Assembly (NCBI GenBank): GCA_050253075.1
Contig: JBFWJS010000002.1
Span: forward strand, 352,001 to 416,000
Length of the DNA: 64,000 bases
Source: Deferribacterales bacterium
Lineage (GTDB): Bacteria; Chrysiogenota; Deferribacteres; Deferribacterales; Geovibrionaceae
Direction of reading: 5' to 3'
Shown here: one piece after another, positions 7,583 through 26,303 of the stretch
Layout: each line of letters opens with the position of its first letter
Numbering within the stretch: position 1 is the stretch's first letter
Program-made: the position numbers and the translations under genes
The notes under the pieces: model-generated
Told to the model about the DNA's origin: nothing
What the model saw: only the letters and a program-made list of their open reading frames with translations
The model's database searches: none

Positions 7583-10500
7583 CTATGCTTTTACAATAGT
7601 TACTTTTGTATCATAGAAGGATGCGCTTCCTCCTATCTTGTCTGTTGCGCACATGTTCTTCAGCACGGGGTCAACGGCATTTGCAGCATTACTGCAAAGT
7701 CCTTTTGCCCGCTTAGGCTCGCCCTTGATCACCTCTCCGTCGAGGATGATGTCGGATGAACCGTATGCCCAGTGTCCATAGTGCCATGATACTGCCACTG
7801 TTCCGGGGCGGATGGTCTCTGTGACAACCAGCTTGCCTGTCATTGGGACTTTACGTCCGTTATTCAGATCCCATACTCCGTCAGGGTTGAAAGCAGATAC
7901 TATAGTGCCCATTTCGCCGTCTTTCAGACCGAGCCTTTTAGCATCGCTTGTGTGTATCATTATGCCGTTTTCAGGCATATGGAGTTCGTTCGACCAGTAG
8001 TTGCCTATTGTTCTGGACTGACCGCCTGTTATCTCTTTGAAAGTGATAAGGTCGAGGTCTGCACCTTTGAAATCAAAAGGTCTGTCGAACATGTCGCCTG
8101 CGATGGTATAGACAGGGTATCCGAGGAAGCGTTTACCTGTCATGGAGTCCTTCGCAGTGGCTACACGAGGCACATAGAGGCTGATCTTATTCTTGAACTT
8201 ATGCGCCACCTTGTCTCCGCTGTATGCCTTCGGCAGGAATTCGAAACGTCCGCCCCTGTTCAGGGTGTAGACTATCTGCGCCCAGTTTTTGGTATGAGAC
8301 TTTGCTCTCTCCATGTCGAATGCCGCAGGTGAAAGATGCTTTCTAGCATTGAGGAAAGTTTTCATCTCTTCGGCATCGGCAGCAGGTACACCGTCCCCTT
8401 CCATGGCGATGTTTTCTATCAGCTTCATGAAGAAGTCTTCCTCACGCATGTTGTCCATGCCTTCGCCGAATCCGTCTTTGCCGAATCCGCCGAGGCCGAG
8501 TCTCTCAGCGATGGCATATGCCACAGCTTCCATAGAGAGGTGTACTGTCTGGCCGTATACGGTTGTGGTGTCTGTCATCGGCTCTACGATAGGCTGTCTT
8601 ATCTTCGATATCTTCGAAGCTACGTCAGGTGTTGTATGGGATGTTCCCCATCTTTCCCAGATGGCCTTATCAGGGAAGATGTAGTCTGCGTACATACTTG
8701 TCTCGCCCACGACGATATCTGATGATATGTGCAGAGGGAGCTTTTTAGTATCGCAGAGCATCTCGATAAACACGTTACCCGCAGGAGAAGCATAAGCCGC
8801 TGTTCCCATGTGTGTGAACAGACACTTGATACCGTAAGGATATTTGTCGTCGCCTGACGGTATGATCTCCTGATACACATTGCCTGTGAACGGATAGAAA
8901 GGACGTTTTGCAGGGTATCCGTTGAAGAATGAAGTCTTTTCATAGACAGTCTTCTCCCTTGTGATAGGATATCCGAATTTTCCGAGCTTGTTATTAACGA
9001 GCTTGCCCATGTCGTATGGGTTTCCGCCTTTACCGCCGTATTCGTGCCAGTGGCCTCCGCCTATCATCATACCGCCTGTCCAGTCTGCATTACCCATGAG
9101 AACGTTCAGGGCGATGATAGCCGTAGCGTTGTAGTATCCGTTAGTATGCTGTACAGGGCCTCTGTAGAAATCTATCGATGTCTGCTTGCCATAGTTTGTG
9201 TATTCCTTAGCTACGAGCTCTATGTCGCTCGCAGGCACACCGCATATCTCTGCCCATTCTGAGACAGTCTTCTCAAATGCAGACTCTTTATAGATAGTGA
9301 ATGCCGATTTAACCTTGATACCGTTTATAACTGTATCAACTTCAAGCTCGCCTGTCACAGCGTCGCCCTTCTCGGTTCCTGCGACAGCTTTTCCGCCGCT
9401 CATGACGACAAAGTCGCCTTCCATGCCGATGTCGGACGGTTTAAGTATATCCGCAGGGCCGTCTTTCTCTATCTTCACCAGCCATGAAGAGTTAGAGAAT
9501 GTTGTCTCGCTGAGTGCTGCGCCCGCCTTAAAGTTTGCAGCGGCGAGGTATTTTGCGTCAAATCTGCCTTTTTCGATCATCCATCTGGCCATACCCAGAG
9601 CAAATGCGGCGTCTGTGCCCGCTTTGATAGGTATCCACTTTGTAGCTTTCGCTGCTGTTTTGGAGAATCTAGGGTCAATGACGTAAACCTTCATACCGCG
9701 CTCTGTCAGACCCTGTGTGATCTTTTCACTGAGCGGCGGTGGTCCGAAGTTTGCTTCGAATCCCCCTGTTCCAAAGTAAAGAACGCATTTGGTATTCATG
9801 ATATCAGGCTTCAGGTGTGTCTTGCCCGAATACATCTCTGCGTATCCGATGTGGTGGGACTGCTCGCATATTGTTGTATGCTCAAAGAAGTTTGGCGAGC
9901 CGAAGCAGTCCTGCATAAAGCGTTTCATAAACTCTTTACGTCCGTGCTCGATACGTCCGCCCATAAAGACGAACTGAGCGTTTGCAGGGCCGGCATCAGG
10001 ATGCTCAGGGTTCGCAAACATGTCCATCATGCCTGCGTACTTCGCTTTAAAGTCTGCCATAGACATCTTTTTGCCTGCGACAGCTTTTGCATCTTCTGCC
10101 ATCTTCTTCATTGTTTTAGAGTCGCGTACTTTATATATGTCTTTGAGACCTTCTACGTTTCTGCTCTCTTCACCGGGGACTTTCGCAAAGATGTTTCCGC
10201 CGTTTACGATCTCGTCCACAGCCTGATTGAAGTCTATGCTCTCCCACTTATTCTCGCCCCTTTTACCCGCTCTTTTCAGCACTTTTGTCACTCTGTACGG
10301 GTCATAAAGGGACTGTATGCCTGCCTGACCTTTCGGGCATATCTTTGCATCTATGCGTGCGCTCCTCTCGAGGGGCTCTGTCATTTCGATGTTAGGATAA
10401 AGGTTCTGCGCTGCGTATGGGTTTCCGTCTATTTTCAGAAGCACGCCTTCCGCCACCTTGCCTTTGATAGCGCAGGCAGTGTGACACTGCAGACAGATGG

Positions 10501-23518: not shown

Positions 23519-23577
23519 TTAGATGCTCCTTTGTATTTGATCTTATTATTAAATATAGGGGCTGGATGTGCGTAATC

Positions 23578-23612
23578 GTTAGACCAATACTGCTGAATTC
23601 TTGCCCGATACA
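23578..23612 (-). promoter_or_regulatory. 35-bp operator, copy 4
   Basis: TGTATCGGGCAAGAATTCAGCAGTATTGGTCTAAC on the minus strand; TATATT 20 nt downstream. Confidence 0.8.
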
Positions 23613-23799
23613 GCAAATCGGATATGGAGTGATAATTTTATCTGAGAATATGATGACGGTGCTTTTCTATGATCTATGTTCAGAAATCTTTCAAATACAT
23701 GACATTTATAAATCCCTACGGTTAAACCCGTGGTTCTATGCTTCGCACATGCTAATGCACGGAATTATGACTTCGTTGTCACAAGCTAGAGTATATGAA

Positions 23800-24063
23800 A
23801 AAAGCAAAGTAGAGATCAGCTTTTACCGTACATCTGACGGTAAAGAAATAGACTTTATACTGGACAACGGAAGCTCACTCACTGCCATAGAGATAAAGAG
23901 TGCAAAAACAGTAACCATGTCAGACTTTTAACATATCAAATATTTTGCAGAATCTACAAAAGGATTGCTGAAAACAGGTTACGTCATGTACAACGGCAAT
24001 AAAGTTCTCAGCTTCGGCGAACATGCCGGAACAAAACTTTACGCTGTACCCATATACCTTTAA
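23800..24063 (+). pseudogene. Remnant of the C-terminus of an AAA_14/DUF4143 ATP-binding protein
   Basis: FYRTSDGKEIDFI..AIEIKS motif; in-frame TAA at 23929-23931, after which plausible coding continues (HIKYF..GYVMYNG..AVP) to 24063. The 5' part is missing and the start coordinate is approximate. Confidence 0.75.
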
Positions 24064-24084: not shown

Positions 24085-25566
24085 TCATTTAAGTTTTTCT
24101 TCTAAAAAGGATACTAGTTTTTGAACATCTTCACTTTGTTCATCCAATAAAAACTCAACAATTTTATTAATAAGCAAAACTCTCGGCTTAGAAACATTTT
24201 CTAACTCATTTTCAATTCTATCAAATAGTTTTTTACCATTTGAATCGTTCAAATACTCTTTACTATTTTTATATTCCTGAATTAAATTACGTAAGCTTTT
24301 CAACATAAAAACGCTATCTTGTAAATGCTCATAAAGGTCTTGGTTAACATTATCGAACAAGTGATACTTTAAATATTTCTCTAAGCTTTTAATTGGTAGA
24401 TAGTTTAGAGGTATTACATTTTTAGAAATATTTTTTCTAATAAACTTTTGCGCATCATCTTTAACATCTGCATCTAAAATAATTATAATATTTGACATAT
24501 GAGATAATATTTTATTTCTAGTAACATCATAAGCCAGCGTAATTACATTTGTATATCCACCACAAGGTAAAACATGTACAAGCTTACTCGAACGTAATTT
24601 ATTTCTATCTAGCAAGTTGTCAATTAAATCTTTAGCTAACTCATCCTCAGCTAGTATCACATAGTCAAAACCAGCATGTACATACAAATCCCTTGTGGCG
24701 TAAGCAGGGTAGCAAGGGTTAATGACTTTCATCGAATTGTCATGAAATCTCTCTAAGTAGTATATATTCTCTGGTCTAATTGAACTAATTAATTCAATTG
24801 AATGAGTTGAAAAGTAAACTACAAAATTGTATTCTTCAGCAATTGACTCAATAAAACTGAGCAACCTCAGCAGTGCAGAAGGATGAAGTGCTAATTCGAT
24901 TTCATCAAGAAGAATAAGTTTTGGTTCAAGAGTGTCAGCTCCCCTCTCAATTCTTTTGTGCAAAGAATTCAATATACTTATCAGTAAGTTTTCCCCAGTT
25001 GACATATGGAACTGATTTATAATAATATTATTTTTTTTATAACAGAAAATCTCACCTTTAAGCCCAAGCTCTTCAGTAACATAGCGTTTATGAACTCTAT
25101 ATATTACTTCGTAGAACTCTGGATCATCCTGAAGAATCCTTCCTAAATTCTCCCGAATAAATTCATTGTAAACATTTAACTTGCTTTCATCAATACCAGA
25201 TAATTTACGGAGTGTTTCAACATTAGCATTTCTAAATCTATTTCCATAAATCAGACTACCCTCATAAAACCCTTTCAAATTGAAGCCATCGTCTTTTTTT
25301 GCTCCCCATTCCATATTATCTTTCACATAGTAATTTTTAGAAAATCCATTATAAGAAAAAGATATACGAGAATCTGAATTAGGAAATCCAAAATAATCAT
25401 CAAGAGCATTATTCCTATTAAAAAATGCACAGGATGCACAGGATATTAAGGTACTCTTACCAGAACCATTTAAGCCAGTTATAGCATATAGCCCTTTTTT
25501 TAAAGGAAGCTTGACTGTAAGTTTTTCTACAGACTTAATGTTATTTATTTCAACTATTAAATTCAT
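24085..25566 (-). CDS. AT-rich ABC/AAA ATPase fused to a TOPRIM domain (OLD-like, candidate defence protein)
   Basis: GLNGSGKST Walker A, MSTGE signature, LLDEIELALHP, STHS; TOPRIM-like ILAED..CGG..LDAD; AGAGG RBS before ATG 25566. Confidence 0.85.
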   Translation of the reverse strand: MNLIVEINNIKSVEKLTVKLPLKKGLYAITGLNGSGKSTLISCASCAFFNRNNALDDYFGFPNSDSRISFSYNGFSKNYYVKDNMEWGAKKDDGFNLKGFYEGSLIYGNRFRNANVETLRKLSGIDESKLNVYNEFIRENLGRILQDDPEFYEVIYRVHKRYVTEELGLKGEIFCYKKNNIIINQFHMSTGENLLISILNSLHKRIERGADTLEPKLILLDEIELALHPSALLRLLSFIESIAEEYNFVVYFSTHSIELISSIRPENIYYLERFHDNSMKVINPCYPAYATRDLYVHAGFDYVILAEDELAKDLIDNLLDRNKLRSSKLVHVLPCGGYTNVITLAYDVTRNKILSHMSNIIIILDADVKDDAQKFIRKNISKNVIPLNYLPIKSLEKYLKYHLFDNVNQDLYEHLQDSVFMLKSLRNLIQEYKNSKEYLNDSNGKKLFDRIENELENVSKPRVLLINKIVEFLLDEQSEDVQKLVSFLEEKLK

Positions 25567-25652
25567 AATAACCTCTGATATAAAATAACTTAATCTCTCA
25601 TAAAAATATATTAGAATAATTGAATGGATTTTGCACCAGAAATGCACCAAAT

Positions 25653-25679
25653 AAAAAAGCGGCTCTTGGGAAGCCGCTT
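25653..25679 (-). terminator. Terminator following the duplicated tRNA 3' end
   Basis: AAGCGGCT-CTTGGGA-AGCCGCTT hairpin with an A-run (U-tract on minus). Confidence 0.8.
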
Positions 25680-25696
25680 CAGTCAAATCCTTAAGT

Positions 25697-25714
25697 AATC
25701 GGGGTGAAAGGATT
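25697..25714 (-). repeat. 18-bp direct repeat of the tRNA-Pro 3' end (att-like)
   Basis: AATCGGGGTGAAAGGATT, identical to 25819-25836. Confidence 0.9.
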
Positions 25715-25774
25715 GAGCCCGAAACGAGTTCGGGCAATCACGAATATAACCTGACGAAATATGATTTTTAACGT

Positions 25775-25803
25775 AAAAAAGGCGATCCTTGGGAGATCGC
25801 CTT
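25775..25803 (-). terminator. tRNA-Pro terminator
   Basis: AAGGCGATC-CTTGGGA-GATCGCCTT hairpin with U-tract on minus. Confidence 0.85.
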
Positions 25804-25820
25804 AACTCTTTTCCTATAAA

Positions 25821-25894
25821 TCGGGGTGAAAGGATTTGAACCTTCGACCCCCTGTTCCCAAGACAGGTGCGCTACCAACCTGCGCTACACCCCG
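25821..25894 (-). tRNA. tRNA-Pro (TGG), CCA not encoded
   Basis: CGGGGTGTAGCGCAGGTTGGTAGCGCACCTGTCTTGGGAACAGGGGGTCGAAGGTTCAAATCCTTTCACCCCGA cloverleaf; TTGACA at 25930-25935 upstream. Confidence 0.97.
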
Positions 25895-26303
25895 TAAGGA
25901 GAACTATGTATATATGACGTAAAAAGAATTGTCAAGCATATAGATAGATTTTTTTTACCTCTTTATACATTTTTTTGTATTTCCCCCGTCATCTCTCTGA
26001 CACATCCTATATATATTATTCTCGTACTTATTATTTTCAGGAGATTTCGTCCATGAAAAGTTACAAAATACTGCCCATAACCACCCTCGCATATACCCCT
26101 GCTTGCGGGCTGTAACAAGAATGAACGACAACGACTTCGGCATAGCAGATGCCGAGACAGTCTTTTATATAATATCACTCCCTATTCATTAATAACCCCC
26201 TATTCGTTTGTTTAAGCCGGTGCTGAAAGGTGCCGGCACTTTTTTTCATTGACAAAGCCTTATCCCCCAAGTATCTACATATTTTCAGCAATGCGGGTGA
26301 CAA

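Follow-up and report, generated by a model that had tools for sequence, protein, structure and literature searches.

An invariant terminator loop behind tRNA-Pro(UGG) is the complement of the anticodon loop: a possible contact between a tRNA and its own 3′ trailer in one genus of the Deferribacterales

Results

The tRNA-Pro(UGG) Gene and the Two Hairpins Behind It

In one genus of the Deferribacterales, the terminator that follows the tRNA-Pro(UGG) gene carries a seven-base hairpin loop, UCCCAAG, which is the complement of the anticodon loop of the preceding tRNA, CUUGGGA. Comparison of the copies of this terminator indicates that the loop sequence is very probably maintained by purifying selection within the genus. 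The genus sample consists of four genomes (G000, to which the sequence analyzed here belongs, to G003) and one metagenome contig (L151), counted together as five genomes.

The window, that is, the whole stretch of 64,000 nucleotides analyzed, contains a single tRNA gene, which ARAGORN calls as tRNA-Pro(tgg) (Table 1). The body of this tRNA is the same in G001–G003 and in L151. A putative promoter precedes the gene; it was recognized by reading and was not called by a strict promoter scan. On the minus strand, hairpin B is separated from the tRNA by a spacer of 17 nt. About 35 nt beyond it comes a hairpin of 7 bp, followed by a copy of the last part of the tRNA (18 nt) and, after another spacer of 18 nt, by hairpin A with two direct repeats behind it. 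Direct reading, ARAGORN and a terminator scan agree with the coordinates and sequences of the anticodon loop, the hairpins and their loops that had been given in a preliminary description of this DNA. Besides the tRNA, the Rfam search yielded just three sub-threshold matches (15–19 bits, against cut-offs of 42–57).

Table 1. Features of the tRNA-Pro(UGG) locus, with their positions in the window.
Feature	Positions	Strand	Remarks
Promoter-like region: TTGACA (25930-25935) and AT-rich -10	25907..25935	(-)	Conserved in five genomes; putative, from reading
tRNA-Pro(UGG) gene, without encoded CCA	25821..25894	(-)	ARAGORN tRNA-Pro(tgg); Rfam RF00005, 66.1 bits
Anticodon loop CUUGGGA, positions 32-38	25856..25862	(-)	Read from sequence
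Terminator B: AAGGCGATC / UCCCAAG / GATCGCCTT + six U	25775..25803	(-)	First hairpin 3′ of the intact tRNA; stem 25779-25787 / 25795-25803; -14.2 kcal/mol
Loop of terminator B, UCCCAAG, complement of the anticodon loop	25788..25794	(-)	
Conserved hairpin GCCCGAA-CTCGT-TTCGGGC, directly before the tRNA 3′ fragment	25717..25735	(-)	93-97% matches in other genera
18-nt direct repeat of the tRNA 3′ end + 2 nt (= 25819-25836), att-type	25697..25714	(-)	Starts in the T-loop
Terminator A: GAAGCGGCT / UCCCAAG / AGCCGCTTT + U run	25653..25680	(-)	3′ of the tRNA fragment; stem 25657-25664 / 25672-25679; -14.3 kcal/mol
Loop of terminator A, UCCCAAG	25665..25671	(-)	
Direct repeats ATTTGGTGCA / TTTCTGGTGCA, right after terminator A	25632..25652	(-)	Arm-site-like; putative

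Judged by their form, hairpins A and B are ordinary intrinsic terminators: each has a GC-rich hairpin, a loop within the range of 3–8 nt and a U run on the transcribed strand. Both were called on the minus strand by the terminator scan, which found 4 sites where shuffled sequence would give 0.6. The scan includes a U.G closing pair and hence reports 10 pairs and a 5-nt loop; such closure could reduce the UCCCAAG loop to 5 nt, which is a point against a full 7-nt contact. Between this loop and the anticodon loop all 7 positions are complementary, so that Watson–Crick pairing can extend over the whole of both loops, as in kissing pairs. The 7-bp duplex has four G–C pairs and, calculated as a plain duplex by nearest-neighbour rules, a free energy of -9.5 kcal/mol. 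The codon CCA occupies loop positions 3–5 and is followed by a purine.

Other features of the gene and its precursor were recorded in passing. None of the listed tRNA genes of G000 and G002 encodes a 3′ CCA, and most have T-rich sequence directly 3′. The leader (25895-25902, minus strand) is short and CU-rich, UCUCCUUA, and variants of it are found at the same place in G001–G003 and L151. In the minimum-energy fold of the precursor, this leader is predicted to pair with the GGGA of the anticodon loop, and in read-through transcripts the second 3′-end copy can, by prediction, pair with the 5′ acceptor strand. Both pairings may be artefacts of folding an unmodified tRNA.

The Loop Is Invariant Among Cassettes With Different Stems

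The core CCTTTCACCCCGA is present in 13 copies in the four genomes of the genus and in one copy in L151, which makes 14. A terminator with the TCCCAAG loop follows all five intact tRNA-Pro(UGG) genes and six of the nine tRNA 3′-end fragments, the spacer being of 17–22 nt and the distance from discriminator to loop of 26–31 nt. The three fragments that lack the terminator are decayed or cut copies: one is cut after the spacer and adjoins an ORF that, read by eye, resembles a Mutator-family transposase, another has unrelated DNA behind it and the last one is decayed.

The 11 terminator copies represent seven distinct spacer/stem versions, here termed cassettes, some of which recur almost unchanged in a second genome (b: G000/G002; f: G003/G002; g: G003/L151). 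The copies were aligned without gaps and invariance was counted over the seven cassettes, leaving out the T run. All seven loop columns are invariant, as against none of the 29 other columns (hypergeometric p about 1e-7). Averaged over pairs of cassettes, the loop has an identity of 1.00, the two stem arms of 0.47 and 0.51 and the spacer end of 0.29. The stems nevertheless pair in 97% of the cells, and eight of the nine stem pairs have changed on both sides; in 500 shuffles the covariation score of the stem was never reached, and six slid registers all fell far short of it. Taking into account that all columns share one tree, kinship cannot explain why it is the loop, and nothing else, that is frozen. 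The suggestion of selection, which the preliminary description had drawn from two diverged but paired stems around a common loop, is thus borne out by seven cassettes from five genomes.

The anticodon loop is constant within the genus, and no variant of it with a matching change in the terminator loop was found, so that there is no covariation between the two loops. In relatives with the anticodon loops CTTGGGC or TTTGGGC, the terminator loop does not match either of them.

The Complement Is Confined to One tRNA and One Genus

The heptamer as such is not avoided in the genome. On both strands of the 3.04-Mb genome, TCCCAAG occurs 81 times, against 83.6 expected from a Markov model. Just three of these 81 copies lie in a loop closed by at least four pairs. 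Two are those of hairpins A and B; the third is the anticodon arm read in antisense, which leaves the anticodon loop as the sole structured partner. In G001–G003 the pattern TCCCAAG-N5-12-TTTTT is not enriched over a backward control (11, 11, 10 vs. 13, 13, 4), and long stems form only at the copies beside the tRNA-Pro core.

A downstream hairpin that presents the complement of the tRNA's own anticodon loop was found for one of 36 tRNAs in G000 and one of 41 in G002, and in both cases it is that of tRNA-Pro(UGG). A single plain complement match behind a tRNA-Met of G000 has no stem. Among the observations that the preliminary description had named as speaking, together, against a link with the anticodon are a lack of such correspondence at other tRNAs and the presence of the same loop in terminators unrelated to tRNA-Pro. 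The former is indeed the case (0 of 35 other tRNAs in G000, 0 of 40 in G002), which makes the feature special to tRNA-Pro(UGG), but not void. The latter was not found, since no other hairpin of this genome has a TCCCAAG loop save the antisense of the anticodon arm.

The tRNA-Pro(GGG) locus of the same genome is also a hotspot and has in common with the UGG locus the presence of 3′-end fragments, the GCCCGAAC hairpin and direct repeats of a similar kind. The loops of its three terminators are TTTAC, TTATATA and TATA, none of which complements the anticodon loop TTGGGGT. The distance from the tRNA end to the loop, 26–31 nt at the UGG locus, is not clearly different from that at the GGG locus (20–25 nt). 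The tRNA-Pro(GGG) gene (G000:C9 45510-45585) lies at a contig end with repeats ATTTGTCAC-ATATTTGTCAC behind it, and its 3′ fragments are found on another contig (G000:C3, about 465,700-465,800); this is a second island hotspot, which the assembly has probably split.

Outside the genus, the TCCCAAG hairpin was found at none of the 26 tRNA-Pro(UGG) loci of the other three genera of the family and of the order; in a further genome of the family (G004) the terminator loop is TTTTT. A pattern search throughout the phylum for the anticodon arm followed by TCCCAAG, which was conditioned on the exact anticodon arm, matched four of four genomes of the genus and none of 64 others in 22 genera. Among 112 tRNA-Pro genes listed from many phyla, which share a common 22-nt 3′ end, two have the hairpin and both are from the genus. 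A metagenome scan with a 52-nt tRNA pattern returned one contig (L151), and the hairpin was absent from all 21 viral contigs that carry the 17-nt core. Relatives outside the genus that have the same anticodon loop do without a complementary terminator loop.

One comparison with another genus is informative about the loop itself. G013 (genus g4; L255, G013:C6:117100-117500) has a homologue of hairpin A with the same stem, T run and repeats, but with the loop TTCAAAC. In this one comparison, three of the seven loop positions are changed, as against one substitution and one indel in the other 41 positions, and the spacer has diverged. As this module works elsewhere with another loop, the constraint belongs to the genus and not to the element. 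The G013 loop matches the tRNA-Pro T-loop, TTCAAAT, at six of seven positions and is therefore a second terminator loop at such a site that looks like a tRNA loop; this likeness is probably due to chance.

Islands Have Integrated Repeatedly at the tRNA 3′ End

The 18-nt copy of the tRNA 3′ end lies between terminators A and B and was overlooked in the preliminary description. Its presence makes the locus a tRNA integration hotspot and hairpins A and B successive layers, rather than two terminators of one unit. Each layer carries its own tRNA 3′-end copy, spacer and terminator; the most recent insertion, at present about 120 bp in length, brought B, and A was part of the state before it. The 3′-end direct repeat begins in the T-loop and the fragments begin inside TTCAAAT, as is the case for att sites of the T-loop class.

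The complete genome G002 has a convergent tyrosine integrase gene (PF00589, 5.7e-19; Arm-DNA-bind_2) directly 3′ of the tRNA-Pro terminator, and L151 contains a stretch that, read by eye, is homologous to this integrase region. Further copies of tRNA fragment plus terminator are located in G002 77 and 100 kb downstream, and both are 99% identical to the fragment and hairpin A of the window. The repeats ATTTGGTGCA and TTTCTGGTGCA are also present 3′ of the homologous terminator in G002 and in G013.

No integrase is found among the 17 ORFs scanned between positions 7583 and 25569 of the window. Right behind the att site, 24085-25569 (minus strand) encodes a 494-amino-acid AAA_21/AAA_23 (AbiEii/OLD-like) ATPase, possibly a defence gene; a DUF4143 fragment is found at 23566-23931 (plus strand) and metabolic genes come after it. 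The ATPase and the DUF4143 remnant, without an integrase, look like a decayed island.

In G002, a tandem array of islands lies behind tRNA-Pro(UGG) (G002:C1, about 546,000-662,000; L004, L158, L161, L192). Within it, a Transposase_mut ORF is located just before the tRNA fragment at about 645,900, and an inverted, truncated tRNA fragment at 662,157 adjoins an ORF that by eye resembles Mutator-family transposases. Two more tRNA fragments are found 8 kb apart at 2.73 Mb, without an intact tRNA-Pro nearby. When L151, L158, L161 and L169 are compared, the spacer/terminator cassettes and the trailing direct repeats appear shuffled: one cassette stands before different repeats and the same repeats stand after different cassettes. 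The junction is at the T run, which points to recombination also between terminator and repeats.

A further conserved element of these sites is the hairpin GATTGCCCGAACTYGTTTCGGGCTCAATC (window 25717-25739, minus strand), which is found directly before tRNA-Pro 3′-end fragments or just behind tRNA-Pro terminators. It is present as well at G000:C3, about 465,700, and beside tRNA-Pro genes in G006, G010, G012, G014 and G015. Its identity across genera (93–97%) exceeds that of the tRNA itself (91%). It may represent the inner end of attP or a site for an accessory protein.

Discussion

A Possible Contact Between Trailer Loop and Anticodon Loop

The simplest account of a loop that is both frozen and complementary would be RNA–RNA pairing between the trailer loop and the anticodon loop. 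The probability that a loop matches by chance is about 1e-5 to 6e-5 per loop; as the finding was picked for its complementarity, that part of the evidence carries a selection effect. What makes pairing credible is that an independent property, the freezing of the loop, coincides with complementarity. We put the claim that UCCCAAG pairs as a kissing contact with the anticodon loop CUUGGGA of tRNA-Pro(UGG) at a little below even odds.

The fuller reading, to which we assign a probability of roughly one in three, is that the trailer hairpin is an anti-anticodon that makes the tRNA-Pro(UGG) precursor self-masking, and that the same loop is required of integrating islands as a kind of password imposed by the host. 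The 3′ trailer hairpin would dock on the anticodon loop of a tRNA-Pro(UGG) that has just been made and is not yet modified, either within the precursor or just after cleavage of the trailer, and would mask positions 32–38 until the trailer is removed or degraded. The methylated base m1G37 is made by TrmD on tRNAs with G36–G37. It would break the central C–G37 pair, and modification of the wobble base would also weaken the pairing; the contact is thus predicted to be specific to the immature tRNA. Islands that replace the tRNA 3′ end would have to bring the same loop in order to keep an essential tRNA working. As to the physiological benefit, our best guess is that the anticodon loop stays masked for as long as the trailer is present.

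Whether such a contact could form within one molecule depends on the spacer. By our own estimate from the dimensions of tRNA, a spacer of 17–22 nt would have to span roughly 95–130 Å, which would be possible only with an extended spacer and a bent kissing complex and would be tight for the 17-nt spacer. A contact between molecules is free of this limit.

Two other effects of the hairpin were considered and rejected. Regulated read-through is unlikely to be the selected effect, since the DNA 3′ of the terminator differs from copy to copy. Attenuation by a leader peptide was discarded, the spacers having no start codon and no shared frame.

Alternative Explanations

Selection on the loop does not itself name the partner, and the loop might be kept for some other reason at the RNA level, such as a protein-binding site or the C-rich seed of a trailer-derived small RNA directed against ribosome-binding sites of the GGGA type, the match to the anticodon being a coincidence or a relic. 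Precedents are at hand, as regulatory tRNA 3′ trailers (the 3′ETS sponge) are known. In Staphylococcus, UCCC loops target Shine–Dalgarno sequences. A conserved 7-mer would nevertheless equal the complement of a neighbouring anticodon loop by coincidence at about 1 in 16,000, and less often still given its frequency in this genome (81 in 6.1 million positions). Furthermore, a crude count showed no enrichment before ORF starts: with ORFs of 80 codons or more, CTTGGGA stands 3–11 nt ahead of the start at 5 of its 81 sites, and the reversed motif at 18 of 328. No Rfam family matches. Taken together, we regard this explanation as unlikely. The same relation between the two sequences would result if the opposite strand were the functional one: an antisense transcript would form a GC-rich stem with a CUUGGGA loop, which could act as a decoy of the anticodon loop for a synthetase, a modification enzyme or an anticodon nuclease. 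In G002, and probably in L151, transcription of a convergent integrase gene could run into the hairpin. The T run, however, is on the tRNA strand in all 11 copies, the neighbouring gene in G000 runs in the same direction as the tRNA, and a scan of 25300-26200 found no promoter-like site on the plus strand; gene direction and the lack of such a site mean that antisense transcription is not a constant of the locus, and a decoy is accordingly improbable.

The preliminary description had also considered that the loop is recognized as DNA by integrating elements. It could then be the crossover (overlap) segment of the recombination machinery of the islands or a site for an accessory protein. The setting would fit: the locus is an integration hotspot with att repeats, tandem islands are present in G002, and an integrase with an arm-binding domain is encoded there directly behind the terminator. 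Integrases that target tRNA genes, besides, usually cross over in a seven-base tRNA loop. The repeats at the island boundaries nevertheless start in the T-loop and not in the terminator, and hardly any position is common to all the stems, which would have to serve as the arms bound by protein. Crossover in the loop between cassettes would have left mismatched stems, yet 97% of the cells pair; with every stem matched, no crossover took place in the loop, and this variant was rejected. As loops vary at the tRNA-Pro(GGG) hotspot, where repeats of this kind also occur, and the module of G013 carries another loop, recognition at the DNA level appears the least probable of the explanations considered here. 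It could be argued, finally, that the loop has no function: all copies would descend from one terminator whose loop has not yet changed, or templated (palindrome-correcting) mutation would have made the stems look variable. The evidence comes from five genomes of a single genus, the copies are related and some cassettes are near-identical between genomes. The same tree, however, holds for all columns, of which the spacer ends are 29%, the stem arms 47–51% and the loop 100% identical, and templated mutation accounts for perfect stems but not for a frozen loop, so that we give the absence of function little credence.

Relation to Known Systems

The hairpins share with other Rho-independent terminators of tRNA genes a GC-rich stem, a short loop, a U run and a location on the tRNA strand, 17–22 nt behind the gene. 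In ordinary terminators the loop is the free part; here it is the only invariant part and complements the anticodon loop. At the tRNA-Pro(GGG) locus and in other genera, the terminator loops differ in sequence and length.

T-box riboswitches likewise present a codon to the anticodon of a specific tRNA, which in the present case would be CCA at loop positions 3–5. T-box forms with the specifier in a terminal loop exist. The features proper to the T-box, namely a location in the 5′ leader of amino-acid genes, a second contact with the tRNA 3′ end and an antiterminator, are all lacking here. No T-box match was obtained from Rfam at E up to 1, and the spacers of the genus copies share no motif and no conserved UGG. 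Unlike the T-box, the present element lies in the 3′ trailer of the tRNA itself and has all seven loop bases complementary.

Fully complementary 7-nt hairpin loops are also a feature of ColE1 RNA I/RNA II and of tRNA pairs with complementary anticodons, and the anticodon loop is a proven good kissing partner. ColE1 RNAs are antisense regulators of plasmid replication and the anticodon pairs are in vitro complexes, whereas here both loops are on one primary transcript. With the 3′ETS-leuZ sponge the locus would share a functional RNA derived from a tRNA 3′ trailer that includes the terminator. That sponge pairs with the small RNAs RyhB and RybB. Its partners are thus small RNAs and not the tRNA made together with it, while the partner proposed here is the co-made tRNA.

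Att sites of the T-loop class share with this locus a tRNA 3′-end repeat that begins in the T-loop, tandem islands and, in G002 and probably in L151, a tyrosine integrase next to the site; the attB of Ms6 is reported to lie in the T-loop (PMC1762012). This likeness explains the presence of two terminators and the shuffled cassettes, but not the frozen loops.

Titles and abstract openings of the literature contain, in our search, no description of a loop in a tRNA terminator or trailer that is complementary to the anticodon loop. On sequence grounds, what appears to be new is a hairpin loop of a terminator/trailer that is under selection and is an anti-anticodon, so far in one genus and for one tRNA.

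Significance

It is customary to regard the loop of a terminator as free to vary and the trailer of a tRNA as discarded material. At this locus, which changes fast and is riddled with islands, a trailer loop is conserved more strongly than any other part, and it complements exactly the anticodon loop of the preceding tRNA. The case is small, being limited to one genus and one tRNA, but clean. Should the contact prove real, a tRNA would be interacting in a new way with sequence of its own precursor, and this could bear on the order in which tRNA processing and modification of the anticodon loop take place in the most frameshift-prone of the proline tRNAs. A real contact would also mean that an RNA feature of the host constrains what integrating islands carry at their attachment sites.
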